Shown piece after piece: positions 1-63,051 of a stretch of DNA of 64,000 bases (its first letter is position 1; the number at the start of each line of letters is the position of its first letter). The DNA lies in assembly GCA_003971905.1 (NCBI GenBank), contig RSEE01000002.1, positions 992,001-1,056,000 of the forward strand, read 5' to 3'. Made by a program: the position numbers and the translations under genes. The notes below the pieces were generated by a model. It was given only the letters and a program-made list of their open reading frames with translations, was not told the origin of the DNA and made no database searches. The DNA is from Moniliella sp. 'wahieum' (Eukaryota).

Positions 1-9
1 TCAAGCTGT

Positions 10-545
10 TCAAGCTTCAAGCTTCAAGCTCGAAGTGATCGCAGATCTGTCAAGCTTAATTAGATCAATTTCGATCGACCGTGGTATGTATTTGCAGTGC
101 CTAGTGGGGGGCGCCTGAGGCCTGAGAAGCATTCCACCGTTCAACGTTCAACGTTCAACGTTCATCGATCGTTCATCGATCATCGTACGTTCATCCACCC
201 ATCTTCTGGTGTCCTCATGCATCATGTCCTCCTGCATCATGCATGCCATGCCATCATGGGGCAGAGGGGCTAGCCTGGAGGCTAGTGGCATGCTGCAAGT
301 CTCACTGACCGGTGACCGGTGACGTATGACCAACTGATCGATGATGCAATGATGCATGATCGATGATCGATGATCGATGACGCGTGACGCATGGCGCATG
401 GCGCTCGATGACGTGTGACGTATGACGCGTGACGGGTCATATAGTTATACGAATGTGTCATCATGTGCCACGTGCCACGCGCCACGTGATTATTGGGCCT
501 GGACCCACGTGATGTGTGACATGTGACGTGTGACGTGTGATGCTT
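10..545. repeat. Cluster of 7-bp-period (TNA + palindromic 4-mer) arrays
   Basis: (TCA AGCT)n at 10-30; (TCA ACGT)n at ~141-163; mosaic (TGA NNNN)n at 306-439; TGA CATG / TGA CGTG units at ~517-540. Confidence 0.9.
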
Positions 546-1458
546 GTGATGCTTGTGGGGAAAGCCAGAGGAGATCGACGAGAGCAACGTGCATGGGACA
601 CTCCCGTGGAACCTGTGCACCAGGCAATCAATCAATACCTGGCAATTCCCAGTCAAGAGACTCAGCCCAGAGCCCATTCTGGCTGAGCCGGGTGCAACGG
701 TCAGTTCGCTGGCGCTCAGCTCATACGCTGATGCCGTTGGCGGACTACAGCCTATTACAGCTGCTATAGCATGTGCTACATGCAGCAGGACAGCCCCCAG
801 CAAGCCCAGATCCATAGCCCGACAGCCTGATGAACATAGGACAGAGAAACTGCACCCCTTTTTCCTGCTAGAGCGCATATGAGCTCTCGGGTTTGTACCG
901 GGTACCGATTATCGATTCCTAGCTTTACCGGTTTCACCGGTTACCAATGATTAATGAAAGCGGAAACAAGCTAGGTTCTTCTGTCTCTGTTAGTTGAATC
1001 GATAACGTTGTTTGATACAACCTTTCCAGCTTCTGATAATCGATAATCGAGATAATCGACGGTCAGCGAGTTCAGACTTCAATATAAGCTTCAAGCTTCA
1101 GGCCAGGGGCCTGAGGTACTATATACTCAGTAATAGTAGTCATTAAGTCATTAGTCACTACTAGCTTCACGGACGTGTATTGAGCAACTGATTACTATTG
1201 CTGATAGTGCTGATGAGTTCTGGGGGTTTCCTGGGGTACTGAGATCTGAAAGATCTGAGAATCAAGCTTCAAGGCCGGCCCATTCCCTCATCGATCTCAG
1301 ATCTCATGGAGTATCAGTATATCAGGGTCCCAGGGGCATGCGGATTTGCAGCGGACTGTTGAACACATTGACGTTGAGCGCTGAGCACGTACGTTGAGCC
1401 CCCGATTTGGCCCTTTTACTTTTGTTGTGGGCTACAGAACCATGCCACTGTATCGGTA

Positions 1459-1507
1459 TCAAGCTATCAAGCTTCAAGCCTTCAAGCTTCAAGCTTCAAG
1501 CTTCAAG
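1459..1507. repeat. (TCAAGCT)n heptamer array
   Basis: tcaagctatcaagcttcaagccttcaagcttcaagcttcaagcttcaag, read directly. Confidence 0.9.
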
Positions 1508-2657
1508 ACACGGCATGTGTGCTACGAGAGTGCCGCAGCCACAGCACAGCCTCTGCCGTCAGCGCGTCAGCGCATCAGTGCGTCTGGCCCCCAGACCCTC
1601 AGACCCAACCCTAACGTCTAAACCTCAGGCCCTCCTCACCTTTGACTTCTCGCCCAAGACTCTCCAGACCCTTCCCCCCTGGTCGGCCGCTAAAGCTTCT
1701 GGCTGGGCTCCCAAAGATCGCCTTATCCCCTAGTAGACTGATAGTCGATCTTTTGCCGATAGGCACCACAACAATATAACTAAGATCGTTAAGATCATCG
1801 ACCATCCTCCCATATCTCTATTTTGGGACCGTGTCATTGACAGAGCCTAAGGCTGGGACATAGAAACAGTATTTAAAAGCAGTTCAAAACTACGGCTGTT
1901 CAGTTCAAAAGAAACACTCAGACGTTCAGGTGTATCAATGCGTTAATATATGCCACTCAGCATTCGATTAGCAGAGGTAAACACCTTGCATTTTTATCGT
2001 TACGGTGTATAGGTTTGCTGTCCGCGGGGTGATAGTTTCTGGGAAAGAATGACACCAATGGGTATCAAACACCTTACTGTTTACCTATTGCATATTGGCC
2101 AGGGACGCGCTATCGAGATCCGGGATCGGAGCAGTTGCAGGACCACAAGCATCACTCTATGACAGTCTCAAAAAGTCGTCAACATTCCCTACTGCTTCAT
2201 CGGCCCTATAGGGCCTGTGAAATCTCCTGTTGCACGTTTTGGGCACTGTCTGGGGTGTACGGGTATGCAAATGAGGGCATTTGTTCGGGAGACCAGGCAG
2301 CTAGAGTTGGTATACTTAGCTGGATGATGTATACACGAGAGTATACGGAAGCCACCGAGAATATTTTTGGCCTCTCTCGTGGGGACGGATAGGTGCATAT
2401 GATCCGTATAAAAGGGGAGAGGGAACCAGGCTTTCGGCTGATGCGCCACAGTATTTGGACGCTATACCGGCTGTTAGACATTTCGTTGGTTATGTGTGAA
2501 CCACACACAGACCAAGCAAACCTATGCATTTTGCATTGGTGGAGGAAGACAAATGCCCATGCGTGCACCAACAGAGCTGTCCCGCAACAATTATCAGTCA
2601 CAAGTTAGTTACGACGCTCTAGATATACAGCTTCCTGCCTCTCTTTTACCGTTTTAC

Positions 2658-3102
2658 TGTAACGCGTAAGCTAGGCTCCGGCCTGGGAAACACCTAGTCT
2701 CTATAAAGCACATAGAACGATCACAGTGTGTACGTGGTGCGTTGGATATGAGATGGCCTGATCAAAGCTAAGTCCGCCTGCTCTTCACATGCCCAGTAGA
2801 GCGCACTGAGAAGTCCACCAAGTTTGATGATATGGCCCGTAAAAACCATGTACCGTGGCCCGAGTGGCCATGCCCGTGCGACAATTACAATCAGCGAGTG
2901 AGAATCTATCAACAAGGTGAGCGATAGGTACTAAAGGGAAGAGAAAAGGAAAAGGAGAAGAGGGCAGTACAAGCAACAGTGGGCAGAGTGTATACAGTTT
3001 CTGGTCTGCCCGCGGCAACTCTAGGGTCTGTAACCCTTTTTTCACAATTACTACTAATCAGCCGCCAGAACGCCGCCACAGGTACGACGTAGCAGCATTA
3101 CA
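2658..3102. mobile_element. Degenerate solo-LTR-like element sharing a segment with the 19514-20344 LTR
   Basis: Termini TGTAACGC...GCATTACA (7/8 inverted match). 2725-2885 aligns by eye in reverse complement with ~20188-20335 (shared gctctactgggcatgt, agcaggcgg, ttagctt, atcatca.acttggt). No matching TSD found, so the boundaries are tentative. Confidence 0.5.
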
Positions 3103-3317
3103 TGCATTACCAGGTATTCTTTAGGGTGCATCATCATGATGGGTACAGCTTTTCTAATTGCTTGCTTCCTGACCCTCTTGGTCCCTGCTCAACAACTCAG
3201 CGCCTCATCAGTGGCCGCGAAACGCTTCCCTCCCGCCTCCCACAAGGGTTTACGATCAAGAAACCATAGACTGCGAGAAGTATTGAGAATTTGTAGGAAT
3301 TTTGGGAATTGAATATT

Positions 3318-5323
3318 GAGATCTGAGTACTCAACTGAAGGAGCGCACATGAGACCTGACCCTGAGGTCTGACGAGGCTTGATGCTTTGAGATCTGTTGA
3401 GATCTGAGATCCTGAGACTGAGAGGCGAATAGTCTTTTAAGCGCCTAAAAGCGCTTTTGAGCTTCATGCAGACAGCGAGTCAGAAGTAACGTCTCAGAGA
3501 CATTGCGGTGTCGCACAGGCCATAATTCGCGGACTTTCTGAGGTTTTATATACGCCAGGAACATTTTGGAACCTGAGGCTCAGGCCTGAGCATACTGAAG
3601 CTTGAAGACTGTTACGCGTTACGTGAAGCTTGAAGCTTGAAAGTGGGACAGCCCCTCCATATCAATGAGGCGCAGTTGTGAAGCTTAAAAGTTGTGTACA
3701 AAAGGGGCCTGTAAACACGGCCTACAAGTACAACAAGCTAGCCTAAGGTAAGGCCATATGAACGTTCGCCGAAGCCTGTAAGGGAACCCCTGGAAAAGTC
3801 TACATAGAGCAATCCAACGGTGGTGGTGGTGGTCTGCTTGTAATGGCATGATGCCCCTGAACTTGAAGATGAGGCAGGAGGCCGGCAGGAGGCCGCGGCA
3901 GGTTTCCAAATTCATGCATGATGCATGATGCATCATGCACATCATGCCTATACCAGGCAAAGCCATACTGTTGGGGGAGAGACAGGGGTTCGAAGAAACC
4001 AATGATACACACGTGTAGGCGTCGGAGGTCAAATTTTAAAGAGGGTGTACATGGTACAAGGGAGGAAATGTAATAAGACCTAAGGAAGCCTAAGGCCTAA
4101 AGGGCTTGGTAAGGATCGATGATCGGTGATCGCAAGGGCCGTCACGCGTCACGCGTCGCCCGTCACGTGCAGACATGAGATCTAAGAATCTGAGGTCTGA
4201 GAGCGCGGAGATATGTGAGATCGATCGGAAACCATACAGTACGTGTGTAACGTAATAATTGTCTGGAGTAATAACATCAACTGCTTGCATGATGCATCAT
4301 GCATCAATGATCTGTAGGATTTGCGTACAGTAAGAAGACGACGTTACGCGCTAACCGGCTTGACCATGGCGGGCGTGGCGGGGCATGGACCGATTCGCAT
4401 TGAGCGCGTTGAGCGCTGAGCTGAGCACATTGACCTATTTTTCCGTTGTGGCAAAAGATGTGGCTGTGGCAGGTGTTACTAGAGGGGGGAGCATATGGCG
4501 GATGTAAAGGGCATGTAACTTGCAAACGAGTAGTGACATATGTAAACGCCTGATAACGGGTACGCGTAACGCGTAACGCGCAACGCGTAACGGGGGAAGG
4601 AAAAAGATACTGCAGAGTGGTGTGATGGGCAGCAAAGGCTCTCCTTAGGCCTCAGGGCCTCAGGGCCTCAGGCCTCACATGTCACCTCAATTCCTATCGC
4701 AATGGGCTGCAAAGGAGAGAGACATATACCCAGAGTTATCTCACTGCCTTTCACTCTCTCCTCACTGCCCGCTGCTCTCTCTACTTCCACGCAGTATACT
4801 CATCGCCCAGCCTGAGCCTGAACATCTGAGAACGCTCGCCACTGCAGTAATCGATCCCTATCGATTTCTGAGACCTCTCGCACTTGATTACCTACTGTGG
4901 TATCGGGATGGCGAAAGATGGAACAAAAGATGGCCTGTGGTGGAAGTTTGAGCCCTCCGGACACTGAATATTCTTAATCGTTCTGAGAGAGCGCTCAAAA
5001 AACTTGCATTAAACACATAGTAGTAGCTTGCATCACGCCAAGCCGTGAAGAATGAAGAAAAGTTAGAGTTAGATGATTGATGCGACCTCTCGAAGAGGCT
5101 CGCGAGGGCCTGAAGCTGTTAAGACACTGTGGCCTGGCCTGTTTTTGGGGCTATGGATGCGATCGAAGGGATACAAGAGGGCTTAGATTGCTGCTGTCGA
5201 CTGCCGGCACCTGATGAGGCCGAGGAGGCGAGGAGACCTGAGGCCTCAGCCTGAGGCCCTAGGCCAGAGTTGGAAGAACAGAACAGCAGTGGGGATGATC
5301 GATCGATCATCGATGGTCGATGA
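3318..5323. repeat. Dense field of heptamer palindromic arrays
   Basis: GATC cores ~3388-3415; AGCT 3596-3640; TGCA 3912-3945 and 4287-4306; CGCG 4141-4157 and 4560-4592 (TAA linker); GCGC ~4410; GGCC 4645-4677 and 5237-5258; TCGA 5296-5323. Confidence 0.85.
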
Positions 5324-8278
5324 AAAAACAAGATGATGGAAGGGAGACTAAGAAATACAGAGGATTTACTGAGTAATACTCATCCCATCAGTCACACCCA
5401 TCTCTGAGTGCTCAGAGAGTGCTCAGACCGAGCATTATACGGCTGTGACTAATACACTTGTATGAATTGAGTATACTTGTACCGAATACTGACATTCGTA
5501 GCCAAAGCAGTATTCTATGCAAGAAAATGACTCGGACGGAGTGCGACTCTCCGATGCATTCGGTTTGAGACATGTAGTGGCGCTTGAGGCCTGATGAGGG
5601 TGGATGGTGCGAACTGTAGTGCTAGAACCAATAAATGGGCGGGGCGAAGCAGGAAGGGAGGAGCGGGGAAAGTAGTTGTTGCGTGAAGTATCAGAGCGAA
5701 GTGGCGAAAAGAGATGTTAAAGGAATGGGCCACGAGATTAACGCATTTATCTGCACGGAGTTCCGACAGATCCGAGGTAAATAGAACTCCCAAGGCACGA
5801 CGGACGATGACTTTGACATTCTCGTGAGCTTGCCCCTTTGAGTGGGAGGATGCAGCAGCCCGCTAATGAGGTCAACGGCTAATACTCTCTTTATTAGTCG
5901 TTACCACTCCTTTTTAGACGCACGCGCGTCGACGAACGCATTTACGACGCGGCCCAAGCGCTGTCAGGGGGGGTGGAGAAGAGCCGGAAGGAAGTGCCCA
6001 AGAAGCTCGACGATGCCGACGGTCGCAATGTCGTCGAGCAAGCAACGCGCTCAATCACACCTGGCTCTCCTCAATCCCATGATCTGTGTGCCTTCGGCTC
6101 ACAAACAAGAAGTTCAGGTTGGTCTCCAGCTCCGCACCTGTTGTGCCGTTCCACGCACAGCATGGGCCAGTGTGTCGTGTCATGTCCTCGCTAAGCACAT
6201 CATGGCTTTAGCCTCACCCAGTCCAATTTTGGTGCATTTCACGAGGTTCCCATTCTTCACTGCGGCGATCCATCCCCCACGACCACATCCACGAGCCGAC
6301 TAAGGGGGGGGGGTAATGATGGGGCGAGGTGTGGAAGGATATGACGATGCGTATTATATTGACTACCGAGTGTTGAGACCTGAAGCCTTCGGAGGATAAA
6401 GAATGGAGATGGACCTCACTTTGTGGAGATCGGGAACGCGGGAGGCGCTGTCTGCGTACGGAAGGGTGGTACACGAGAAGAGCACGCGACGCCATTTGAA
6501 CGCCACGAGAAAACTGATCCAGCGACGGGGGTACAGGGCAACCCTCTTCTCATTCGCACGCCCCTCGGGTGCGAGTCAAAGTCGTTTGGGAGGGGAAGGG
6601 GAACGGACGGAGGAGGTAGCGGCGCTGTTGGCCCGCTGGCCAAATCTCGCCTCTTCGGGACTTGGGGAAAAGTATACGAGCTCCGCTGGCCCGCCTGCCA
6701 ACGTTCGCTCGCACGAATACAAGGTCCTGGGGACTGCTAAGAGGATCGGCGCTCTCCGCTGGCCCGCCAGCCAGTTTTCACCGTCACAAAAAATGGTTCT
6801 TGCGTGCGAACCCGGGTACTATACTAGACACTTGTCCCATTCAGATTATTCCTAGAGTCGAAGCATATGGAAGGAGGAGGGGGGAGAGAAGCCGAGAAGC
6901 GAGAGGGACAATAAGGGATTGGAGGTGGTTGGTGCAAGGCGACTTGATCAAGGCGACTTAATCTCACCCCGTTGCAATCCTGATCTGATGGCGGTTTCTC
7001 TGGTTCCTAAAGGGTTGACGCCAACAAGCAACGCACACCAGAGGTAACAGGTCAACAGTTTAGGCCCAGCATTTCTTTGTCTCAGCCTAAGCTCTCTGTC
7101 AATGATATCATTAGAGATCGAGATGTGGTACCTCGAACACAGTCCCAATGAAGGACTCCTGAAGCTTCTCTCAAGCGTTTCATCAAAGCGAATTGAGATG
7201 GCTTGCCTTAATTGTGCCCAACCGACGATGTAAACCATTGTTGGGGCGAGGGTTAAATACATGTCCGGTACACCTGATAACTATCATCATTTGCAAAGCG
7301 TAAGATATTAGGGATAGCGAAATGCTACACCTACCGAGCTCGCTCAATATGAGCCGGCATGTGCTGCTCACACGTATACAAAAATAACTAGAGGAGGCCA
7401 GTGGAGTCGCGCACACGTCAGACTTCTTGTTTCCCGCCACAGCTGCTTCCCAAAACCGGATGCAGTGTGAGGATACGAATAAGTTTGAAAGGCATATATG
7501 TGAGCGAAGAACCATCTCCAATGAGACTCTTCAGTAAGATTCTTCATGTGCTCAAACATCTTGTTGGCCGTCTTCGACGGTGTGACATAGTACCTTCCTC
7601 GTGTCACCATGGCCAGAGGGAAGGACAGGTCGCGAGTGCGTCCCTGATAATACTTGGTATTTTCTTGTCGCATCATTACGTTTGCTCCACAACAGTCCAT
7701 GCACCCCTTTCTCGCGGCGTTGCCCAAGGGGTTCCGTCTCCTCGCATGCTATTTGCCTGTAAGTGACCTTCATGGCCTCCTTTTTGGACCCGAGCCACTC
7801 ACTATACACATGCAGGATGTGTGGCCCGCACCTCCATTCCTGATCATCCTAACGCTCCTGGTGTCACACGGCAACACTCGCTTGTCCGTGCGTCTGGTCT
7901 TGCTTCCCCCGATGTTTCCTCGTCTTCCTCCACCGTCGGCTCATTGAAAATATGTGTACCCCGGTGGTACGCACAAGTCGGAAGATCGGCTTCCGCGCGA
8001 CCTCTCATGCAACGCCCTGCAAAACGCCCCGAAATGAATGTGTAAAAGGGGGCCGGGGATGGGACGCCTCTGAGAATTTGAACGTTCAAATGAACCCTGA
8101 ATAGTTGAAATATACCACCCATGGCCCACCTGAGGATTAGGTAACCTTGCCGCTGGCGTTGTCCACCGAGGCGACTACGACGCCATCAAACAGCCCATCA
8201 ACACCTGACCCGCCTACTCTGGCGGTTGTTTGAGTCGCTTTCTTTCCCTTTGTTCGCGCCGTGCTCGATCTTGGAACG

Positions 8279-9748: not shown

Positions 9749-11584
9749 GCAGTTCGAAATAGTTGTTATAACCAGCTGAGACGCGGGGGATTCCCTCTCC
9801 CAGCCTTCTGGACGGGAACGTACGCTTCGCCTGTCCCAAAACGCTACGGGTATCGTCCCATAGCATGTGGCACAGTCCCTGTGTGCCCTGCATTCTCTGA
9901 TGTGTGCCTCACTGACCCTGGGCCTAGTACGGCCTCCTATAGATGCACCTCTATGATCCCGACCCAACTCTTCTGACTCCAATCCATCACCTCCTCTCCT
10001 CATCCTTCTGCCCGTCCAGTCTGTTGACCAGGGTCCTATGGGCCAGCCACCCCCGCGGCACTCCTGACCATCTTACTCATCCGGGCACCACACCAGTATC
10101 CCTATCCCCTGGCCTAGTGCCGCTCTCCTTTCTTCTCCTTCTTCTCCTTCTTTTTCTGATCCTCAGTCTGGGTTCAACCCAGCTCCTGTCTTCTCTCTGC
10201 CATTGCACAACTGCACTTAGGACGTCGCTGGGTCACCAGGATCATTACAGTCCCCTAGGCCAACAGTCTCTTCTCCACACGAGGTTGATGGGGCTGCTCG
10301 TCCACGGAACCTCTGCCGTGCCCGTTCTCAAAGCCGTTCGCATGCGGTCGTGGGGGGCTGTTGGCCCTGAAGCTCCCTCTGCTCCCCGAACCCTCGGCTA
10401 TACAAGGCCCCACCCTTCTCATAGCCTTCCGTACCTCTCCTCAGAACTACATCCTCCTCCTCTTTCAGCATGTTGCCTTGTTTCCTTGTTTTTAGTCCTT
10501 TTTCTTGTTACTAGCCATAGTTCGTGGTTTTCCCTCACGGTCCACTAGGGTCTCCCCCTACTCTGCTCGTCAATTGATCAACCCAGTGCAAGCAACTCCT
10601 CCGCTTAATTGCTCCTCCATCTCCCGTCTTCAGCTTTCCGTTCTCAGTTCACCCAGGTCGCGAGGGACTCACAGGTGTCACCCCGAAACCCAGCTCAGTT
10701 CAGCCGCGTGTGACCCTGCCTACAGCCACGCCGCCCCCATTCCCAGTCCAGCTCCAACAGTCCACAGCGCAACATATCTACTATTGCCTCCTCCCCGTCC
10801 CTGAGCGCTGAGCGCGAAGGCTTCAGACACGTTACTGCCGCCCAAGTCGGTGCTACGCAGCCTCACTGTGGCTTGTACCCGCCTCTGCTATACGCCGGGA
10901 GGCCTCTCCACGGGCGGTCGAAAAAAATAATTTCAACTCTTAGGACACCCCATTAATATTTTGCTCTCAAAAATTCCTGCACGGCACAAAAACGCTCCTG
11001 GATATAGGACAGCGAATTATCTCCAGCGTAACATATTGCGCTCTCCTGACCCCCTAACATTGTTTGCTCTCCTACACCTCAGGGAACCATAAACATCTCC
11101 TGAGGAGCACAAACTGAAAAGCTCTCCTGAACCAGGGGATCAAACACGCTCTCCCGGGGCTACAGATACAAAAAGGCTCAAAAGATGATATAGATGAAAA
11201 CATAATTCATTGGCACGAAAGGCAGCCGCCATAGCCATGGCCTCGGTCGCCGTTACAATGGTAAATGGAACCACGCGCACACAGCATGATCGACACCTGC
11301 AGGTCCAACTGGTAGGTCAACACATGACAGCCTTCTTGCCAAATAGAAGATCCCAAGGGTTGCCAAGCGTATCAACCATGAAAGTTGGCCCAAAACCATG
11401 GTGGCGGCGACGATTCACGACACACAACCCAAAGACTTCACGTACACAAGACATTGGGGTTAGGGGACCATGCAGTGAGGCTGACGCACTGACGTCCCTT
11501 GCGCTCGGCCAGCGACACAGAAGAGAAGAGTAAATGTGTAGCCTTGGGCGTGAGGGCGAGAGGAACCTTCCAATTGGAAAGATC

Positions 11585-11815
11585 ATAGAGGGACATAGCA
11601 CGGGGAGGGCAACGTACCGTGCACTTGGATCTGCCGCGCGAGCATAGAGTGAGGACAAAGCATGGGGAGGGCAACGTACCGTGCACTTGGACCTGCCGCG
11701 AGATGAAAGAGTGAGGACAAAGCATGGGGAGGGCAACGTACCGTACACTTGGACCTGCCGCGAGATGAAAGAGTGAGGACATAACATGGGGAGGGCAACA
11801 TACCTTGCACTTGAT
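11585..11815. repeat. 62-bp minisatellite, ~3.8 copies, inside the TIR element
   Basis: agtgaggac recurs at 11648, 11710 and 11772; core ggggagggcaacgtaccgtgcacttgga. Confidence 0.95.
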
Positions 11816-12209
11816 GTAGGTAGATGGGAGGGAAGCAAGTAATGGTCAGTACAAGCAATTTCGACGTACCGAATACTGCAGGCAGGCGGGAGTGCATCGG
11901 TTTGTTGTCAACGCGGTGAAGTTGGAAGGGAGCGGGAATGGGGCATGCCGTTGGCGCATGCCTTTTATAGCTCCCAAATTGTTGGCACCGCCGCGCGCAT
12001 ACACTGCCCCCGTGCATCTCACAGATTCTCTGCGCTCTCAACAGAAACCCAAGCCCGGGCCAGTGTATGGCGATTGGTAATCAAGGTTCCCTGAAATCAA
12101 GCCTGGGGCCAGTGTGGCCTTGATGAGTCATCGCATTAGTTGTTACGCGATTGTGTATTATACCAGCTGACGCGCGTGGCACGTGACAGGAGGACGAAAG
12201 TAATATACC

Positions 12210-12913
12210 AAGGCTGGTCCACTTTCTATACCGCGACTTGGTCGAACTTTACGCAACTGAAGCGCCGTTCATTATTGGTAAGGTCCTGCGCATAGGGCGT
12301 AACAGTAACAACAGTGGAGTTGCATGGGTTGGATTTCGCCCATTTAAAATCACAGGGGTCAAGCACCGCTCCGGGTGCCGTATCGTTGAAGAGGTGGAAG
12401 ATGCTCCTGAAGAGTTTGCCTTACTTGATGTGAGTGGACACATCAACACTGTGTTGAGCTGTTTGAACTAACTATTGATCTCGTTATCAGAGACTTGGAA
12501 CGGAGGCCCCCTTCCAACACGCCTGCACTAAGCGCTGTCTCATTGACCCTCAAGGAAAGAGGGTAGTTGTGCATAATCACGAGATCGATCCCGAGACTGG
12601 CGACTTTGAGGAGATTGAGTACTACACTGAGGAAGCATATCACGAGGGGCAAGGCCGAAGGCCGGTACCCAATGAGTATGCCATACGCAGTCCTCCTCAC
12701 ACCAAACCCTATATGGACCTGCGCATCAGTCGCTCACTCACACACATCACGCCCGAGCGTTTGAGTAGGAACGTCGCCGCAAACATCGACAAAACGAACG
12801 CGATGGCGCACATGAACAAGAGGAATCAGACCAAGGCTCGGCTAGTAGCCAATGCCTTGGCGCCCGACACCACGAAGCCCCGGAGTCTGACTAGGACAGA
12901 GGCCCATGCATAA
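12210..12913 (+). pseudogene. Residual coding fragment inside the TIR element (possible transposase/accessory C-terminus)
   Basis: ORFs 12238-12471 (FIIGKVLRIG...GHINTVLSC) and 12569-12913 read as natural protein and may be joined by an intron; no catalytic motif visible. Confidence 0.35.
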
Positions 12914-13968
12914 ATGTATGTCCTCTCCCACAAATGACCCGAGCAGCCTTGAAGGCTTACGCATTCCGACAGCCTATACGTCTGATAAGGGTGCCGCTGG
13001 TCCAAATGAGCGTTGTAGGGTGTGTGGATAGGACCCTGGGCGAGAGAACAGTGCTCTTGTTCGCCCTTGGAATCTGGGCGAGCACGGTTGTGGGTTCCTC
13101 TCGGCGGCAGCGGGCTGGGCAAGCACATGGTGGGCAGGCGGTAAAGCAGAGAGAGGTCGGAGGCGTGGGATGAGGGCGTGTGCCAGGTCAAGCTGGCGTG
13201 CAGGACGGCAAGGGTGTAGCGCGGAGCGATGCCGCCGGTCTTATTCAGCGCGGGTGAGGGAGGCAGGTGGCGAGGCGGCGAGAGTGGCGTCGAGCATGGC
13301 TGTGTGGGGATGCTGACGATGGGATGGGTGGGCTGGGAATGGGGGTGGGAGAGCCAGCTGTGCGAGCCAAGGGGGGCAACTGGTGGGTAGGCGTGCGCTA
13401 TGTTTCAAGAATTGGCTTAAAATCTCAAGAAATCTCAACGTTGGGCCCGGCTGGCCCCAGTTGCGCGCCGAGACCAAAACAGCTCCTTGGCGCAGGACGC
13501 GGAATTCGCTCCTCTGTAATATTTTTCAAGCCTTGGCCGCCAGCCAGAGAGAGAATGGCCGCCAGAAGCTGATAAAATGAAATTGTGTTCTGCATTAAGA
13601 GTTTAAAATTTCCCAGTCGACCGCCCGTGTCCTTGTCTCTCTAGCCCCACTAGGACCCCCATCAATCATTCGCCAAAGCACGTAACTACCTTGAGTCGGC
13701 CCTTTAGGTTCTACAAGGGATTGTACCCCTAAACCCCCGGCCGGGCCCCCTGGCGGCGCACACCCGTGCGTGATACTGCCAGTGGTCTCAGCCATACCGC
13801 GTAACGCGTAACGGACAACCGCAGTTACAGGTGGCCAGTTTATTAGGCCACCGTTTAGAAGGGTATAGCATTTCTTTTTGTCCCAGACTTACTGCTGCAT
13901 GACATATATGCCTACGGCATAATTGTGTGAGACGGGCAACCCAGGATAGAAAAAGGAAGAGGAAAAGA

Positions 13969-14041: not shown

Positions 14042-14712
14042 TGGATAGGAGAGTTTCCAAAAAGGATTGACCTCTATAACGGATTTTGTGATGCCAAAAA
14101 ACCCCTTCATCAGTCCCCACACTACCAAAGTATGTAACCTGATCGACTAGATCTCAGGGACCTGGAAGGCCTGATCGCCGAGATCTGTCCCCATCATTAG
14201 GAAAATGCCAAAGCCATCGTGAGTAGGAGATACATCGATACAGGGAACCCAAGCCGGCGGGAAGTTCCGGTCACCGGTCGCATCATAGTATTCCATGTGA
14301 CCGGTGTCCTCTGTCTCCTAAGATCAAACGCGCTAATTGAGCGCTGGTGTATAGGTGGGGCCCCACACATTAGAGTGGGCCCATCTCGGAGAAAGCCGGG
14401 CCGGAGTCATGCGTCACGCGTCACGGGTGTCGAGCAGGGGGAACATCACATTTCAGGATCTCCCAAAAGGCTGTAGTGCGGGTGAGATGACATAATTGGG
14501 GTGGCGCCGTATGGGCTGACATGGGAAACCCAGAAACAACATGGAGCTGTCGGATGTGCTGCGATTTAGTAGTTATCCACATACTGTCATCCGGGGGAAT
14601 ATAGCAGGTGCCGCTGGCATCGCGCTCAGCGTTGGAGGCCAGCGAAGAACGATCCGGAATTAACTGTGCATTACTCTTTCATCCACCATCTTCGCGTTCA
14701 CACCTGTTGGCA

Positions 14713-18791: not shown

Positions 18792-19513
18792 AATGTTGGT
18801 GTGGTCATGGTAGGGAAGTGAGTAGTGAACGGGGGCGGGCCGAACTGTTTGAGACGAGAGGCATAGGCCCGTAACCCATATTCAGCCCACGGTATTCCTA
18901 CCGAACCAACAAGCATCATCAGCTGATGCCTCACACGCCTCACACCCCCTGTGGAGAGTGGGGCTTGTCTTATCGTGGCGCGCCGTAGCAGGCCGTAGCT
19001 CTCGCTGCGGGCGGTTTCGCTGGCTCAGCGCTCAGCGCTCATCATTCGTCATGCATGACCAGGACCAGAGGCGTTCTGCCGTTACGCGTCACCGGTTACC
19101 TCTCGAACCGCAGCGGGGACTCCCCTACTGCCTCGGCTGAGTAGGCTGTGCGCCCTCCGCCGCTGAGTAGGGCGTTTAAGTTCTCAAGCTGAGTGCAGAG
19201 CCGCTGAACCTCGGACGCTGTCTCGGCCCACCGCCCAAACACCCCAATATATCACCCCGTTCGCGGGGAAAACTTCGCAGCGTGAGAGCAGTCTTCGGCC
19301 ATTCGGGCAAATGACGCAGGTATCGAAGCGTTATCGATTATCAGCCACTAGACACCAGCACAGGACCACTTCCATACCAAGATATAACAATTCGCGCGAA
19401 TGTTGTCGATGAAGACTTGCGCAGGGGCACCTACCCTGGTCTACCAGTGGCCTACCCTGGTCCAACACAGGCAAAATGATCATGCACCTGTGTGTGATGC
19501 ACCATGTGACCAT

Positions 19514-20344
19514 TGTCACGGGCGGGCGCCGCCAGGGGGCCCGCCCTGGGGTTTTTGGGGTACAATCCCTTAGGCGACGGTAGGTCGACTCACGATAGTT
19601 TCGGGCTTAGGCTGGTTGGCGTGTCCGAGCGGAGCTAGGAACGAGGAGAGGCCTTTGGTGGGGCGGCTGCACGTGTGGCAAGGCTGCGTCTGCACCGGTG
19701 GGCCGTAGTAACGTGTCTGAAGCCTCCGGGACTTAGGGACGGGAGGAGGCAGCGGCGGACAAACACTGCCTTAACTGGGACTGGGAATCGCCGCGACCGA
19801 AGGAGGGCTCGCGCGATTGGACTGACGAAGGGCTGGAGGACGAGGTCGGAGATGTCGGACGCTAACAAGAGGAGCTGCCATTAGCTGGAAACGGACAGGA
19901 GTCGGACAGGATAGGCGGGAAAGGGACGAAGGTGGAGACGAGAGATGACGAGAATGGAAGGGGGGGAAAAGATCCCCATCAACCAGGGGTACAGGCAGGA
20001 TCAAAAGGGAAACGGATACAAGAGAGGGTGTAGAAAGGAAGACATGTCAAAAGCGGGGTTGGTCGCCGCAGGCGCGACCGAGAAAGGAAACGGAAACGGG
20101 GACGGGACGGCAGATGCCGCCACGGCACTGGAAGCTTGGTGGCCTTATTTATAGGCCGGCCGACTTGGACTTGGGCGGGGGGCGACTATTGTCGCGCGGA
20201 GCATGGCCCTTCGGCCACGATACTTAATTTAGCCAACCATCATCACACTTGGTTGGCCTGCGGAGCACGCTCTACTGGGCATGTTCGGAGCAGGCGGGCC
20301 TTAGCTTGGGTCGGACCATCTCGTGTCCGCCGCAGCCCGTGACA
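19514..20344. mobile_element. Solo LTR, 831 bp
   Basis: Termini TGTCACGGGC...GCCCGTGACA (10-bp perfect inverted repeat, TG...CA). 5-bp TSD ACCAT at 19509-19513 and 20345-20349. TATAAATA on the minus strand at ~20146-20153 suggests minus orientation. Confidence 0.93.
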
Positions 20345-20359
20345 ACCATAGTCGACTGC

Positions 20360-21911: not shown

Positions 21912-22171
21912 TGCCCTGAATTGCAGGGCAATGAAGGCGACGTGCAACCCGACCCAGGAATAATGAGACGGCTATGGATGGAGGCCAGGCAGACTGGTGG
22001 CTCTTTAGGCATGTGCCATTTGGGGGGGATGGGGTGGGTACAGAGGTCGGGAGTATCGAGAGGAATGGGCATAGCGGCGTTTGCAAGAGAGAGGGACAGA
22101 CAAGGCTCTCCCGCCCAACAAACAGGGACGTACGAATAGTACAGCAAAGCATGTAACGGAGCAAACAAGAA

Positions 22172-35753: not shown

Positions 35754-37047
<1,294 letters not shown>

Positions 37048-49994: not shown

Positions 49995-52186
49995 GTGGGT
50001 TGTCTGCCAATGAGATACGAAAGATGCCATGAATCTGTGTCCCCAAGGAGGCTGGAGTTGGGGCGATAACGTAGTTTGGATGGGACACCCCCTTGAGGCC
50101 AAAGTGCATGGGATCATGGTGCTCAATGGCCATTCTGCCGTCATGGTTTCCTACACGGTACAAAACACGAAGACTCGGTGCCGTCTCGTTCCACATGTGC
50201 TCATGGCGTGTCATATGCGCCAGTATAACACTGCTGGTCCCTAGAAATGACCAGCTACAGTCAAATCAAACTGATGAGGCACAAATGAAGGAGCTGCAAG
50301 TCGCCTGTTGGGGCAAACGAACTGATAGATGAAAGCCCCAGAAAAGACGAAGAACCCACCAGCATCCGTTGGAGTTGCTCCCTAGCCATAATAGCTCTCT
50401 GAGCCCTACTATTATACACTACTGAAAGCGCCAAGAAGATAATTGGCCACCCATGAACGAGCATTGGAGATGCTGCCCATTGAGAACATCATCGCTCACA
50501 TGGTCACCGCATCTGCATCCATTCGCGGACGCAGAGGAGTGTTGGAGGAGCCAGAAAGTATGGTGGTGAAACTTGAGAGCGCATCGGGGAGGGGGACGTC
50601 ATTGAGAGACAAGCGATTATCTCGATTATCCACCACAGCAAGTGATATCTGGGGAAATATTCAGTTCCCAAAACAGAAGACACTGTGGAGAGGCGTCTAG
50701 TGACAGCCCCCGGACTTTAGCTTGAAACTTGATCTACACTTAAAATATGAGATCTGTGACATGTGACGTGTGATCTGACTTGACGCTGCCGGTGATATGT
50801 CGATGATAGCGGCGAGAGAAAATAGTCGGGTCGGTCACTAGGTCACTAGCACTCGTCACGCGTCCCTAGTCACTAGTCACTGGCATTATGCGGAAGCATG
50901 CTTTGGGACATGTGTCGCGCAGGGCCCGTTGCTCGCACCTGAGCCTGAGGCGCGAGTTACATGTGAGAGGAAGAGGGAACAATACATGTGGATGCGATAT
51001 GGCCGGATGACCCAATCAATACCTTTGGTCGCTTAACTAGGACTCGTTCAGTACGTTCAGTTATTCGGCACATGCATGACGGGAACAAGCTCAAACACGG
51101 GGAGCCGGAGATACCGGTGGCAAGGTGCCAGACAGGTGGCGTTAATTAGATTGTACGATCGACAGAGGGCCACATCACCTCTACACACTGCATGTACCTT
51201 GGCTACATCCGATGGAAAACATGGTACAGAACGTCAGCCGCGTTATGGTGTGACATGAAGAAGTCATTCACGCAAGAACGAGAGCCCCTCCGCGTCGGAG
51301 TTTGGCCTCAAACCGGGAAAAAGCTCTCACTTTTTAGTGACCGGCGAGACTCGGTCGTATATAGTAGAGGCGAGATACTGCATTTCGCGATCAAAGGATA
51401 TACGCCATCTGTGTTGGTATACATCGTTTATGTGGTTTGTGTCACAGTCGGGGCTAAGGCGCTAAGGCGAGGAGACCAGAGCCGAGACTAAGCCAAGGGA
51501 TGCAGCAATCGTTCGTGAGGGAGAAGCAAGAGCAGAGGACATGACGCGAAGCGTAAAAACAAGGAAGCAGCGAGACGCTCGGGACGAATAGGAATTGGAA
51601 ATGGCAGCGAGCGATATCAACGTGATCAACCAAACTATGACAGTTTGGGACTCTCTGCTTTGCAAACTCGACAACAATAAGCTTCTTCCTCACCGGGAAT
51701 ACAACGGCTGCATTATTGAGTGAGAGCATGTACGTGGTAAGCAACGCGACAAAAAGACTGCAGATAGCAGTTAAGCTTATAGCACACCACAGTAGCGTGT
51801 GGTGGTGCTCGTCCCGGCGCGTCCCGCCCCCTTCGTGCAACGTTTTGGTCTCTCTCGGGGGTAAGGGAGAACCGGACCTAAGCCTTTTCTGATGTGAAGA
51901 GATGCGCGGTATGGTCCGCGTGTGTCGGATGATCGATGACGGGCCATGATCTATGGTCATATGTCTGTTGAAGTTCACCATTCAGCGCCCTCGGCGCGCT
52001 CAGCCTCTGAGGGTTCATGAGGCGGGAACAAATAACTGAGATGCAACAGAGAGGAGCCAAGCCCCAATAAACTGTGTTGAAGATTGTGGTATAAAAAGAC
52101 AATGGAATGCGTGCCCTTCGTCCTTTTATTTGACCCACACACCCTTCTTGTCGCCCATCCTCCCTCTCCCCTTATCTGTTCTCGCC

Positions 52187-57190: not shown

Positions 57191-57506
57191 TATCAGTCTG
57201 TCTCCGATCGAAGCAGTGTGCGAAATGAATGCATACGAAGCTCCGTCATTCACTTTTACCAAGTATTGGCCAGTTTGGGCTATTGGAGGAACACATACAA
57301 TGCATAGAGCACTACAATGAGGGGCAGGAAGGGGATATGTCGGAGTCACATGTGGACATAGCGGGAGGGAGAAGTATGAAGGAAAAGTACGGCACACCTG
57401 TGCGCCAGAGCAAGGACAAGGGGCACAGCGCGATTCCATACGAGACCCGGGGCGAACCACAGTCGCCAGGCCAAGAGATCCGGGCAGGGGACACTCAGTA
57501 CTCAGT

Positions 57507-58572: not shown

Positions 58573-59651
58573 GGACGGCGCTTGTCCAGCGGCGTGGCGA
58601 GCACAGCCATGCCGAGGGAGAACGGGGCGACGGTGGGGTTGGGGGTGATGGGCGCGCGGCTGAGGCTGCGTTGCACGTTCAACGTTCACGGCTGGTTGGC
58701 TCAGACGCCGCTTGTGGTGGAGTGACCTGAAGTGCGGCACCGCCGACTTCAGCCGCCCCCACCCGTCTGTGGCGACGACCCACTCTAAAAGCGGACATTT
58801 ATTTGCAACTCGGCGGCTACGCGACGCGGGCCCTACACTGGCCCTGTGCGGCACTTGCACGCGTTGCTCTCCACGTGTTCACGCGCTGGGAAAGGAGCCG
58901 GCAGGGCGTGTTACCTGTCGGACGCATCTATCGCGATATGCGGGCTACGGACTGGGCCATCCTGCGACGAACGCCTACCAGCTGCGGAAGGTGTCTCCAC
59001 CACCCGCCGACTTTGTATCTGTCCGCGCTGCCAAGCATATCCATGCCGATTTCGGGCAAAGGCACAGAGTGCCATGATTACCACCGCTGACATGATGGGT
59101 GCAATGGAGAGACGACAACGATCCCAACTAGGCCGGGATGAGTCGGAATCTGACGGATCGGAGCAGCAATTGCTCGCTGTCCGAAGGTTCACTTCGATTG
59201 CCAACACAATTCTATCTGTTCCTCGCCATTTTCCCTATCGAGGGGTGTGGTCAGGGGTGGACTCACAAAGGGGAAGACCGTTTTCGGTAACTCGACTATA
59301 TACCTAGCCTAGTCTGATCGATTGATTCAGATCGCATCAGGATCGCACGTCAGCGTCACCCCCGTTATGTCTCCACACTATGTTGATGTGCACGGCCTGA
59401 TGGCTATTGATCCGTCCGTCGATATATATAAGCTGTCCTGTCGTTGAGATGCCTTGTGGGGATTCTATTTGGGTAACACAGCACGCGTATGGGTACCAGT
59501 GCACAGGACAAGTGCTGAGAGAGTCAAGGGGGGAAGCCAAAAGAGCGGTGGTGTGCATTGATCCAGGACACGAGACTAAAACGAATAAAGGGAGGGGCAG
59601 CCCGAAAGAAAACAACCTGTGTTTCACACAGACTAACAAGAGAAAGGTGCA

Positions 59652-61097
59652 ATCAAAGAGAAGCGCGAATGCGCCTAGGGTCATGAGAAGCGCGGGGGCA
59701 GCAATGTGGGTGCGCATCGCGCCCGACTTGGAGGAGGAAGAGGATGGGGAAGATCCCGAGCTTGAAGCTGAGCCAGACGGGGAGGAAGAGCTGCTAGCGG
59801 AAGTGCCGCTTCCGGTGCCGCTCCACTGCTGCTTCCTGCAGGCGCTTCGACATGCACGTCAATGTCTTGAACAAAGATGCGGTACTGGCTTTGCGGGTCA
59901 GAGAGCATAGGGTAATCTTGGTGGGAGTAAGGCAGAATATCAAGCGTAAAGTTGGCTGCATTGAAGGGCTTGTATGCGTTTTCCAGATTCGTTCCGCGCT
60001 CGAGATGGGTAGAGCCCTCACATTGCGCAGCCGGCTTGGTGTCGCCAGGGCCATTGTCTTTGGATCCCAGAGCATGGTGCATGGTGCGCGAAAAGTAGCG
60101 TTGAATCGTAGCGTTGCGGTCGAATCCGTTCTTGGCGTAAGCAGGCACACCGTCCAGGCCGTAAGGCCAGGTGTCGAAGCCGGTGGATGGGCACCGGCCC
60201 TGACCAGGCGAAACGGGGCGGTCGGTCGTTGGCCAGGTGTAGGAACCGCAGTTGCCGTACCAGTAGCGCAGGTTGGCGTCATTGGGGCCGGGCTTACGCA
60301 GCATGGCGTACCGCTGCGTAAAAGAGCAACCGAGCGAGTGGCCAGCAAGGACAATGTTGTTCAGGTTAGGGTAGGTGGTGCGGTTGAAGAACAAGTCGAG
60401 CATCTGATCGAACGCACGGAACGAGGAGACGGATGCATCCCCTGGACCCTGGGAGATTTGCCCTTCGGCCCAGCTGCTCGGGCCAAAGTACAGATCGCCA
60501 TCTTGAACAGCACCGGCTTTCTGCTCGAGGGTGGACTGCCACGCGGGGGCAGCAATAAGGATGGTGGACAAGTCGACGCCCAAAGTAGCATTGTTGGCAG
60601 CACAAAGAAGATCGTTGCGGACCAAGCTGGCGTACTTCCAACTATCGCGCGGCTTGCCGGGCTGAATAACAACGACACGTTTGATCTTGGTTGGGTCTTT
60701 GCCCGTCTCGACATAGTAAGGCAGAATGCCGCCCTTGGTGTTTCCGCCTACATGCAGGTCACGCTTGAGGTCAAAGCCGAGGAGCTGGGGAGCTCGGTCC
60801 AGCCAGCGGTCTGGCTGCCGCCTACCTGAGGCGACCCAATAAAGGCCGTGTTGGTGCACCAGGCCGTCTGGGAGTTCTGCGCGACGTCTTGGCCTTGAAG
60901 AATGACGGTCTGACCCGCCGCATCGCCGGGGCGAGCGCCGGGAGGGCATCGCCATTTTTGAACTTGCTGGCCAAGTAGCTGGCTGGGTCGAGGGGGTCTG
61001 CGCCGGCCTGGCGGGCGAGAGGGACACGCTGCAGGCGGTGGGCACTGGCTGTGGCCACGGCGGCGCCGAGGGCAGCGATGGTAAGCGAGAGGCGCAT
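59652..61097 (-). CDS. Secreted alpha/beta-hydrolase-fold protein, probable GPI anchor
   Basis: Signal peptide MRLSLTIAALGAAVATASA; nucleophile motif LAGHSLG followed by QRYA; Ser-rich linker and hydrophobic tail (SGAMRTHIAAPALLMTLGAFALL); 3' end approximate. Confidence 0.8.
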
Positions 61098-63051
61098 GTT
61101 GTCGGCTGCTGGGGCGAGGTGGTGGGGGTAGGAAGCGGGATGGGGGGGGGTGCCGGGGCGGGAGGGTGGATGGATGCGCGCGAGAGGCGGCCACGCATTG
61201 GAGGGTTCGGCTTGGCGCGTAGCCTGCCTTGGCCTGCCTGCTGCATGCCAACGACACCGGAGATCCAGGGTCTGCCGGCGCAGGCCGGCGCTCTAGAGGC
61301 CTCGTGCAGCGCTTGCGGCAGACGGGCTGTGTGTTGCTGTGTCGCAGTGTTCTCTTGGCGTTGCGGGGCGGCGGAGCCAAGAGAGTGCACGTGGAGCCAT
61401 CGTACCTCGTGCTGATGCACTGTTGCAGATGCAGGGGGCCGCTGAGCGCTGACTATGACTAGGCGGCCTGGGAGCTGGTGCACCGGCGCCGATCGGCCAC
61501 AGGGGCGCAGGATGCCCGCAAGGGGAGAGGTGCGTGCGCCCCCTCGCAGCACGGGGGCAGGGAGCCGCTTCGCGTTGATCGACATCCCATATGCCACCAG
61601 GGCGAGGTGCTGCTGCGGAACGGAGGCGGACGCGGAGTACGCGAGCAGGGCAGGGCAGCTGAGCACTGTGGGCGGTGCGGGTGGCGGTGGCGGCAAGTGA
61701 TCTGCATGGCGCGTGACTAATAACGTCCTACTGATTAAGCAACGAGTTCAGTACGTTCAGCGTACTGGCAGCTCAAGCACTGGAGCTGAAGCAGGCTGAA
61801 GCACTGCTGCAGCGCTCCTGCCGAGCTGGTGGCTGGCTGCACCGCCCTGCCCCATTCCACCGCTGACCGGTGATCATCCTACCACGCACTAGCCGAGCGT
61901 GGGCGGAGCTGCGCCGGTAGCATGTAGGCAGCACCTCGGGTGACCGGTGACTAGTGACCAGTGACTAGCACTGGTGACTAGCTGGTGACCGTGCCCGGTG
62001 GGACGGCTGGCCATATGCCAAGAGTCAGTCACGTGGCTGCTCGCCACATGCGGCACACGTTACCGTCACACGTCATGAATGCCTAGGGACATGGTGGCTG
62101 GCTACTAGGCTACTGCCGGTAGCTCGGCACGCCTCAGTCTGAGTACCCAATCACTCTACTCAGTATAGGCGCTAGGTTCTCGGTAGATACCGTGCTGAAC
62201 CGATGAACCTCTGAGGTGGAAAGGGTATGTGCACCCAGACGAGGGCAGGAATGTGTTAGCCCTAAGGCCTAAGGCCTTAGACCAAATCCTCCACGTGCAT
62301 GCTTGGCCACATCATGTGAATGTCATCTCTCGTCGCATGTCACACCCATGCGTGCGTGAGATAATATGCACATCACGTGCATCTCACTGCCGCAGGGATG
62401 CAGATAAAAAAGGTCACCTGGAAATGTATGATGGCCACGGCATGCTGGCAGCTTGTCTCGTTCTATGGATACGAACAAGACTGCGCCAACACTTCAAAAG
62501 CTTGGGGACACGACGACGGTCGATGCCGATGAATCAGGACGATCGGAGTCGATCGAGAGGCAATTGCACCAAGCATCAGATCGATGAGAGCATAACGAGA
62601 GAATAGGGAGTTTAAAAGCGGGGGGAACTATGCACCTTCGCTCCTAAGTACCCTAAGTAGAGAGTATAAAATCAACAACCAAGACAGCGGAGCAGGGAGA
62701 AGACAACTGTGCTCCCACGCCGTTGGAAGTGTGTTGGTAAGCTAAGTGTGTGTTGGTAAGCTGTTCGGCGCGAATAGCAAGCACCCTTTCCGTCCCTTTT
62801 GTATAAAGAAAAGCCTCCCTTTGAATGGTTACGCTGGCAACCTCAAGCACAGACTATATGAAATCCGGCCGGTCTCTTGACCCTCCCCCCCCCCCCCCCT
62901 CTCCCGGGTTGTGTATAGTCTCTCCTGTTGGTCATATTGGTTGTACCATGTGGCATGCATATACACAGGGATCACCAATTGCCCGTCACGCGGGCATGCG
63001 TGCTGGGAGCCTTGCCTCTGCGACGCTATTAGTATCGACACCTGCATCGAC

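Follow-up and report, generated by a model that had tools for sequence, protein, structure and literature searches.

We analysed a 64,000-nt stretch of the genome of Moniliella sp. 'wahieum', positions 992,001-1,056,000 of contig RSEE01000002.1. This stretch is referred to as the window, and all coordinates given below are window positions. The window encodes fungal genes, and between these Tandem Repeats Finder detects many short arrays with a period of 7 bp. The arrays follow a common rule and not a common sequence. In brief, each unit consists of a T-N-A linker and a palindromic tetramer, the core, which is equivalent to a 6-bp A....T palindrome plus one base. This class of short tandem repeats is real and highly non-random, and apparently it has not been described so far.

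The G+C content across the window is 49-66%. No long bacterial-type open reading frames (ORFs) were found in the window; split eukaryotic genes are present instead. A Pfam profile search of 130 stop-to-stop ORFs of the window gave matches to a fungal-specific transcription factor (Fungal_trans), ribosomal protein S13/S18, a proteasome subunit, CHD1 C-terminal domains, an amino-acid transporter and an AAA_11/AAA_12 helicase. The proteasome exon has 66% identity with Tilletiaria anomala, followed by Sporisorium, Ceraceosorus, Exobasidium and Tilletia; another sequence matches at 85%. The helicase ORF has only 35% identity to Tilletiaria and 51% to another sequence. The best named relatives thus belong to the Ustilaginomycotina, and the DNA is nuclear, from a smut-related basidiomycete of a poorly sampled kind.

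A common rule for the arrays

There are 55 exact period-7 runs of at least 14 nt (at least two copies), and 42 of these are a 6-bp palindrome plus one base. The palindrome has the A....T form in 40 of the 42, the two others being CACGTG+C and GTTAAC+C. Thirty dinucleotide-preserving shuffles gave a mean of 3.87 period-7 runs (maximum 8) and 0.47 runs of the palindrome-plus-one type (maximum 2). As controls at other periods, 52 period-6 runs included no perfect palindrome, and 12 period-8 runs nothing palindromic. A preliminary description of this DNA had put forward the seven-base rule, and it had predicted an enrichment over other heptamers, over 6- and 8-bp periods and over a dinucleotide-matched null. 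This holds within the window, and the proposed unit is present at 24 of the 24 positions for which it was claimed. At two of these, 517 and 50757, the unit was described as forming CATG arrays; the unit is there, with a copy number of only 1.9.

The linker is highly specific. When any X-N-Y linker followed by a palindromic tetramer and chained at +7 is counted, T-N-A gives 59 units compared to 0.27 expected, and the remaining 15 linker types give 0-6 compared to 0.3-1.6 expected. If the same N is present on both sides of T-N-A-xxxx-T-N-A, xxxx is palindromic in 111 of 179 cases (3.33 in shuffles); of the 112 cases with different N, 23 have a palindrome there. Counted from the core, N is identical on both sides of the palindrome in 111 of 134 flanked units. 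Complementary N across the core is found in 12-13 of the 134, above chance yet a minority.

The statistics per locus cover 88 loci. N is G in 41 of these, C in 34, A in 8 and T in 5, so that the linker is T-S-A (S being C or G) in 75. The cores are AGCT (13 loci), TCGA (13), CGCG (11), ACGT (9), CCGG (8), GGCC (7), TGCA (5), GCGC (5), CATG (4), GATC (4), ATAT (3), GTAC (3), CTAG (2) and TTAA (1), giving a total diversity of 14 cores and 4 linkers. Cores made of A and T only had been reported as absent. They are depleted (4 of 88 loci, 19.7% expected, p = 7e-5) and not absent, with TTAA at 948 and ATAT at 3310, 37314 and 41762, every one in less than two copies. The two central bases of the core are G/C in 71 loci (55.7% expected, p = 1.4e-6), and the outer base is free (44 of 88).

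Unrelated cores stand next to each other behind one constant linker. Unlike palindromic cores are present in 16 of 59 adjacent unit pairs, and in 5 of these 16 the two cores agree at no position. The array at 306-434 has retained about 17 of its 20 linkers, with cores that vary widely. As the linker is kept while the core changes, such an array is not a homogeneous array decaying by random mutation, where the linkers would go equally fast. Single-base deviants beside an intact unit are transitions in 10 of 10 cases, 4 of them at CpG, which points to ordinary neutral decay after the units had formed. Common variants have units spaced by 1-4 extra nt, and the period-8 and period-9 forms are T-N-A plus core plus one or two bases. 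Homogeneous arrays reach 11.9 copies, and of 40 longer arrays 23 leave a remainder of 0 or 1 when their length is divided by 7.

Short tandem repeats are normally attributed to slippage of whichever motif is present. An ordinary slippage microsatellite was rejected as explanation of the common rule, since slippage is not expected to give a rule common to unrelated motifs, and the 42 runs that obey one rule stand against 0.47 in shuffles. The preliminary description had argued likewise.

The smallest form and its polarity

The form T-N-A-core-T-N-A without neighbouring cores is found 35 times compared to 3.07 expected, and core-T-N-A-core 5 times compared to 0.63. Exact period-7 runs with a single core are distributed by length as 10 nt (3 runs), 11 nt (9), 12 nt (24), 13 nt (12) and 14 nt (9). 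Past the last linker of a chain (75 ends), bases 1-2 match the core in 64% and 52% and bases 3-4 in 27% and 29%, full continuation being excluded by construction. Flush ends at both linkers are found in only 3 of 88 runs.

The elementary product is 5'-T-S-A-X-Y / Y'-X' / T-S-A-X-Y-3', where X' and Y' are the complements of X and Y, and this product is polar. The 12-mer, TNAXY-Y'X'-TNAXY in its general form, repeats a 5-nt sequence directly, with the reverse complement of the last two nt of this sequence as a 2-nt spacer; it also occurs as the mirror image. This geometry yields the palindromic tetramer XYY'X' and the hexamer A-XYY'X'-T between identical linkers, and it adds 5 + 2 = 7 bp. Among 12-nt period-7 runs listed without bias for holding any 4-bp palindrome, the 5/7 and 7/5 arrangements make up 19 of 35, and all 19 start or finish with T-N-A.

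With the strict 12-mers (n=35) all written so as to place the half-core 3' of the second linker, the counts for N are 26 C, 3 T, 6 G and 0 A. N is thus a pyrimidine in 29 of 35 (two-sided binomial p ~ 1e-4). By strand, 18 of the 12-mers are on the plus and 17 on the minus strand. A polarity of N together with an even strand split suggests an asymmetric chemical step that is tied to the linker and not to the chromosome strand. In the orientation of the pyrimidine strand, the classes (0,2) and (1,2) together number 23 versus 7 of the mirror form, and a second boundary class, core-TCA-core-TCA, numbers 8 versus 1.

Two other accounts of these runs were rejected. Extra target duplications around the runs are not apparent, as flanking direct repeats of at least 3 nt are found at 5 of 88 compared to 2.4 in controls. 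Arrays broken by 1-3-nt indels are not a general account of the 12-mers, as 26 of 35 have no shifted continuation on either side. A count of direct repeats around palindromic spacers over all lengths was left out of the analysis, being dominated by overlapping segments within arrays.

Location of the arrays

The arrays are located between genes, upstream and downstream alike, in the ORF-poor stretches at 1-5400, 19-22 kb, 25-27.2 kb, 33.8-34.6 kb, 43 kb, 50.8 kb and 61.9-62.3 kb (Table 1). Period-7 segments total 1,216 nt. Their share is 9.2%, 5.3% and 10.8% in three ORF-poor stretches, and they make up 0 nt in three coding stretches, which show the lag-3/6 signal typical of coding DNA. The arrays had been thought to be spread over the whole window; they are confined to ORF-poor stretches instead, with none in the coding stretches.

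A self-BLAST of the window gave 36 distant matches, all but 3 of them array versus array, and 0 extend into the flanks. As the flanks are non-homologous, the arrays are not copies of a dispersed element, in line with the earlier view of a rule rather than a sequence. A dispersed repeat or miniature inverted-repeat transposable element family is ruled out, there being no likeness beyond the simple repeat.

Table 1. Heptamer arrays by window position.
Position	Units	Strand	Cores and remarks
9-30	(TCAAGCT) x3.1	.	
113-126	(TGAGGCC) x2	.	
138-195	(TCAACGT) x3.9 (138-164) passing into TCATCGA units with 4-nt fillers	.	
306-434	about 20 units, constant TGA linker	.	CCGG, CCGG, CGTA, CCAAC, TCGA, TGCA, TGCA, TCGA x3, CGCG, CGCA ... 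CGCG
306-323	TGACCGG unit, opening part of the 306-434 array		
509-540	TGACATG / TGACGTG units	.	
1035-1059	(TAATCGA) x2.3, TAATCGA again past a 2-nt filler	.	
1086-1107	TCAAGCT x2 then TCAGGCC	.	
1293-1306	(GATCTCA) x2	.	
1459-1507	(TCAAGCT) x6.7, 1-nt fillers	.	
3310-3330	TGAATAT TGAGATC TGAGTAC	.	one linker with three unlike cores
3387-3423	TGAGATC units, one with 3-nt filler	.	
3596-3641	TGAAGCT, TTACGCG, TGAAGCT x2.6	.	
3912-3939	TCATGCA TGATGCA TGATGCA TCATGCA	.	N flips to complement (minority form)
4140-4167	(TCACGCG) x2.6 and decayed units; TCACGCG at 4140-4157	.	
4286-4306	(TCATGCA) x2-3	.	
4554-4592	(TAACGCG) x5.7	.	
4648-4685	TCAGGGCC and TCAGGCC units (period 8 and 7), then TCACATG	.	
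10801-10815	(TGAGCGC) x2.1	.	missing in paralogous copy 19640-19745
13798-13813	(TAACGCG) x2.3	.	
14406-14425	(TCACGCG) x2-3	.	
19023-19041	(TCAGCGC) x2.7	.	
20359-20388	(TCAAGCT) x4.3	.	
20830-20849	(TTACGCG) x2.9	.	
21067-21108	(TCAACGT) x3.7 fused in phase with (TCAGTAC) x2.9; TCAGTAC at 21090-21104	.	
21226-21241	(TTAGGCC) x2.3	.	
21881-21914	TCAAGCT-TCAAG, then TGAACGT and TGATGCA	.	
25089-25172	(TGAAGCT) x11.9	.	longest array
26564-26669	(TCATCGA) x3 and TGATCGA units including one TTGA variant	.	
26877-26899	(TGATGCA) x3.3	.	
27149-27169	(CCGGTGA) x3	.	
33883-33910	(TCATCGA) x4	.	
34559-34610	(TGAAGCT) x5.7 with indels	.	
43083-43120	(TGAACGT) x5.4	.	
50755-50881	TGACATG x1.9; TCACTAG / TCACGCG units	.	
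57493-57506	(ACTCAGT) x2	.	
61940-61989	TGACCGG and TGACTAG units	.	
62261-62277	(TAAGGCC) x2.4	.	

An identical 19-nt string, TGTGACATGTGACGTGTGA, is present at 515-533 and at 50755-50773. This may be a convergence of the process or a small duplicated segment.

A paralogous pair of sequences, 10788-10905 and the reverse complement of 19640-19745 (68% mean column identity), has an array in one copy. The junctions are GTCCC-TGAGCGC-TGAGCGC-GA-AGGC and GTCCC-TAAGTCCCGG-AGGC, and the copies are too diverged for the event to be reconstructed.

Other features of the window

The only RNA gene found in the window is a tRNA at 34234-34315 (Rfam 52.1 bits). ARAGORN calls it as Phe with anticodon aaa and a length of 82 nt, a result suggestive of an intron or a miscall. 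This tRNA is flanked by heptamer arrays at 33883-33910 and 34559-34610. The stretch 26000-28300, upstream of the fungal transcription-factor gene, has a G+C content of 66%. Both of its strands carry numerous long open frames that overlap (up to 507 codons) and have no Pfam match; four heptamer arrays are located in its first part. A 27-bp tandem repeat at 38694-38816 (4.6 copies) is in frame inside the open frame 38124-39089, and it is probably a 9-residue protein repeat of a gene that runs on into a Myb / SWIRM-associated region. The observed/expected ratio of CpG is 0.87 for the whole window and 0.78 for 1-5400.

Four sequences resembling transposable elements (TEs), 19512-20346, 2729-2885, 10909-13629 and 13715-13768, share the ends (A/G)TTGTCACGGGC...GCCCGTGACAA. 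The first of these is an 835-bp unit with inverted ends, and its part 20188-20344 resembles 2729-2885 (75% over 162 nt). The 2.7-kb unit at 10909-13629 has inverted ends of 34 nt and contains a 62-bp tandem repeat at 11591-11813 (3.6 copies, 91% identity). An inverted pair of 55 nt is formed by 13715-13768 and 19517-19571. No clean target duplication was found at the TE-like ends CACGGGCGG...CCGCCCGTG, and no transposase domain.

Occurrence in other DNA

As an outside control, a metagenome collection was scanned for (TCAAGCT)3, which returned 121 loci (506,935 nt). Among the other exact tandem heptamers of these loci, 15 of 157 are of the palindrome-plus-one type, which is the chance share of about 1 in 10, compared to 42 of 55 in the window. 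T-N-A-core-T-N-A with cores other than AGCT is found 45 times in the 121 loci versus 85 times in the 64-kb window.

One of the loci, the environmental contig L063, carries 11 motifs compared to 0.57 expected, spread over 7 places and built on the cores AGCT, GATC and CCGG. Its arrays are TGAGATC x3, TAACCGG x3 and TGAAGCT, and the sites following the rule are located at 280-340, 840-890, 1670-1720, 5858-6030, 6346 and 11440-11520 of the contig, which has eukaryote-like split ORFs. In L067, L070 and L020 the signs are weaker than in L063, and all four contigs follow the rule at lower density. A tblastx search (E 1e-8) gave no homology between the window and the 121 loci, L063 included. The presence of the rule in L063, with the control loci at chance, indicates that the phenomenon is present in independently assembled DNA and restricted to few lineages. 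This fits the lineage-specific process suggested in the preliminary description.

Predicted folding of the arrays

We predicted the folding of four-unit arrays with DNA nearest-neighbour parameters. The predicted fold is ((((((.(((((...))))).)))))). with a T-N-A triloop on a 5-bp stem, followed by an N.N mismatch and a further stem of 6 bp. Its predicted energy is -7 to -12 kcal/mol for four units compared to -2.3 for random heptamers. AT-only cores are predicted at -2.5 to -3.8 kcal/mol, near random sequence. By outer pair, the mean predicted energies are -7.4 (A....T), -7.4 (T....A), -10.5 (C....G) and -10.6 kcal/mol (G....C), and the numbers of arrays are 40, 0, 1 and 1, respectively. Judged by these predictions, hairpin stability alone does not explain the choice of T-N-A. 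Pairing strength as modelled here can explain the rarity of AT-only cores, and it is perhaps the cause of the G/C centre.

Origin of the arrays

We tentatively suggest, with a probability of roughly 0.4, that the arrays are the scars of a lineage-specific mutational process, and neither selected elements nor copies of a mobile sequence. With the same reservation, this process would be a previously undescribed DNA transaction of this fungal lineage, acting at T-S-A with the pyrimidine strand marked, and the repair would insert 7 bp as a 5-nt direct and a 2-nt inverted copy. Each event might then double its own target and write arrays of palindrome plus linker into non-coding DNA, a self-propagating scar comparable in kind to P-nucleotide addition and active across the genome of a fungus. 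The arrays are restricted to T-S-A and to non-coding DNA, and whole units were amplified later.

The process can be pictured as follows. A nick or break would recur at or next to T-S-A, its likeliest source being a sequence-specific nuclease or a transposase-like activity. Fill-in repair would duplicate a 5-nt stagger, and one end would pass through a hairpin or fold-back state and gain 2 palindromic nt, as do P nucleotides at hairpin-capped ends. Because the product holds the target twice, the event could recur. Later events at one linker, with another neighbouring dinucleotide or with nibbling, would place new cores behind that linker. Ordinary slippage would multiply whole units (up to 12 copies), point mutation would let the units decay, and insertions would persist only outside coding DNA.

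Hairpin opening at breaks had been listed in the preliminary description, and of the named mechanisms it fits the 12-mer best, with its 5-nt direct repeat and 2-nt inverted filler, as a formal match only. In known systems, hAT, Transib, MULE and RAG reactions hairpin-cap the flanking DNA, host enzymes open the hairpins, non-homologous end joining joins the ends and footprints remain (PMC5499845). A direct duplication with a palindromic junction, as in such footprints, is present in the arrays (24 runs of 12 nt, 35 strict 12-mers), again a formal match only. An element or transposase and filler at both flanks were not found in the 64 kb.

Several points weigh against this origin. We found no nuclease, transposase or element with a T-S-A target in the 64-kb window. 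Known hairpin-forming transposases cap both flanks, whereas the palindromic filler here is one-sided. The G/C-rich core centre (71 of 88) and the depletion of AT-only cores (4 of 88) are predicted by a role of base pairing, and scars of breaks explain them only ad hoc. As the remainder of the array length is 0 or 1 for 23 of 40 arrays, and not the 5 that would follow if each unit came from a 5 + 2 event, slippage must do most of the growth. The core-TCA-core-TCA class (8 versus 1 mirror) is not predicted. Finally, the evidence comes from one 64-kb window and a few metagenome contigs, and the 35 12-mers are partly non-independent.

The main alternative, somewhat less probable than the scars of breaks, is a structure-driven replication error without a nuclease. 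A nascent end of the form core-T-S-A would fold on the T-S-A triloop and copy the palindromic core. As the core is its own reverse complement, the strand could re-anneal one unit back on the template and thereby duplicate 7 bp directly. Hairpins mispaired once in each unit would favour slippage, and perfect period-6 palindrome arrays would be lost as cruciforms, consistent with their absence from the 52 period-6 runs. Such an error accounts for the requirement for a palindromic tetramer, for the 4+3 period and for the longer runs being mostly whole-unit arrays. It is supported by the predicted hairpins (-7 to -12 kcal/mol versus -2.3 for random heptamers), by the depletion of the weakly folding AT-only cores (p = 7e-5) with the G/C centre, and by the core-TCA-core-TCA class, as expected from fold-back of the C strand. 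Polymerases are known to be stalled by short repeats that form hairpins (PMC7441554).

However, the nearest-neighbour energies do not favour T-N-A, since T....A is equal and C....G and G....C are stronger, with counts of 0, 1 and 1 versus 40. The commonest small form has 12 and not 14 nt and ends mid-palindrome, which fold-back and return is unable to make. Unrelated cores have a common linker within one array, and lone odd palindromes around TCA and TGA outside the runs, the products of a snap-back, are not enriched (64 versus 61.0 and 71 versus 70.8). The (TCAAGCT)3 loci of other organisms do not have the general rule, which makes a universal physical cause unlikely.

Two further mechanisms named in the preliminary description failed. 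Fold-back self-priming across the T-N-A linker would invert N, and N is inverted in only 12-13 of 134 flanked units and the same in 111. As for cut-and-fill at 6-bp palindromes, both 4-bp duplications and a surplus of lone A....T hexamers, either seeds or remnants, would be expected, and neither was seen (168 hexamers versus 156.7 +/- 10.7).

Scars of a transposon appear improbable. Repeated insertion and excision of a T-N-A-duplicating DNA transposon, for example NuwaII of the PIF/Harbinger-ISL2EU-Spy (PHIS) group, would leave a 3-bp duplication and 4 nt of filler or terminal nt per cycle, and 3 + 4 = 7. A target duplication would leave identical N at the two sides of a core, as is seen, T-N-A-core-T-N-A is the commonest minimal form (35 versus 3.07), and the window holds TE-like inverted ends. 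PIF/Harbinger excision is mostly precise, however. The window has no T-N-A-flanked element: no terminal inverted repeat element with a flanking T-N-A duplication was found in it, the 3 candidates being all array versus array, and none of the 130 ORFs has a transposase Pfam domain. NuwaII elements, present in plants, fungi and animals, duplicate a C-TNA-G target in which N is free (PMC4482050). This context is not preferred here, as G....C cores, which give C-TNA-G, are found at 19 of 88 loci, about the chance share. Moreover, 14 cores would call for a large number of families, or else for a filler process in need of explanation itself; the half-core past the last linker does not follow from a 3-bp duplication, and 12 cycles at a single site (25089-25172) are implausible without slippage.

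Still less plausible are selected cis-elements, such as sites of dimeric factors, three-frame stop traps (a TGA or TAA in each 7 nt), terminators or a signal of the chromatin or cruciform type. The arrays are intergenic, both upstream and downstream, and several hexamers, ACGCGT and CACGTG for example, may resemble known factor sites. Read from the sequence, three units with TGA or TAA linkers give stops in all three frames of one strand. On the other hand, 14 unrelated cores under one spacing rule do not look like the sites of one binding protein, the arrays differ freely in copy number and position, many units are decayed, with 10 of 10 deviants being transitions as in neutral decay, and the polar 12-nt form resembles a reaction by-product and not a designed site.

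An artefact of sequencing, amplification or assembly is highly improbable, since it would ignore coding status whereas the arrays avoid coding DNA (0 nt versus 5-11% in ORF-poor stretches), and the units show ordinary point-mutation decay and are found in the independently assembled L063 (11 motifs versus 0.57 expected).

Comparison with known systems

We found no description of a T-N-A plus palindromic-tetramer rule in the open-access literature; a report in an older subscription journal is possible. By analogy, the arrays would act like a mix of two known systems, target duplication with P-nucleotide addition at hairpin-capped breaks and hairpin microsatellites of the CNG type. Tested for membership, they belong neither to the hairpin-break footprints nor to the hairpin microsatellites.

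The likeness to hairpin-capped break repair by hAT, Transib, MULE and RAG lies in a direct duplication of a few bases with an adjacent short palindromic addition and imprecise junctions (PMC5499845). The arrays differ in their one-sided filler, the fixed 7 bp, the iteration on their own product and the T-S-A target, and no element or transposase was found with them. With NuwaII the arrays have in common a duplicated trinucleotide T-N-A with free N, and the group is known in fungi; they lack the C...G flank preference (19 of 88) and such an element in the window, and the accessible portion of PMC4482050 does not describe a 4-nt palindromic footprint for NuwaII.

CNG triplet microsatellites, for which PMC7441554 gives background, likewise have self-complementary units with one mismatch per period and strands that fold on themselves. 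The same folding with periodic mismatches is predicted for the arrays. Array abundance does not track the predicted stability, except for a trend within A....T. The arrays also differ from CNG triplets in having a period of 7 and not 3, many units under one rule, a choice of linker beyond stability and short lengths.

Thermophilic polymerases grow palindromic-repeat oligonucleotides in vitro by fold-back self-priming, known as 'hairpin elongation'. Both this and the arrays are tandem repeats of palindromic units, but fold-back growth inverts the odd base, whereas the arrays keep N in 111 of 134. The STRR of cyanobacteria are intergenic heptamer repeats. Other bacterial intergenic heptamers are GGGAATC of Xanthomonas and Nostoc (PMC4692102) and TAACTGA of Beggiatoaceae (PMC4679880). 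The arrays resemble these repeats only in period and intergenic location. Each bacterial family has one fixed non-palindromic unit, often in inverted array pairs, whereas the arrays of the window have palindromic units with 14 cores and 4 linkers and are located among fungal genes.

Implications

The arrays constitute a readable mutational signature of a process undescribed in eukaryotes. If the process is driven by an enzyme, that enzyme would represent a new kind of fungal site-specific nuclease or hairpin-forming activity. If it stems from DNA structure alone, T-S-A triloops would hold properties that are missed by current nearest-neighbour energy models. Under either cause the arrays offer a natural system for the birth of tandem repeats, a step that is seldom observable. 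The environmental eukaryote contigs L063, L067, L070 and L020 could lead to relatives for comparison, and the arrays may be used as lineage markers in a little-sampled branch of the Ustilaginomycotina.

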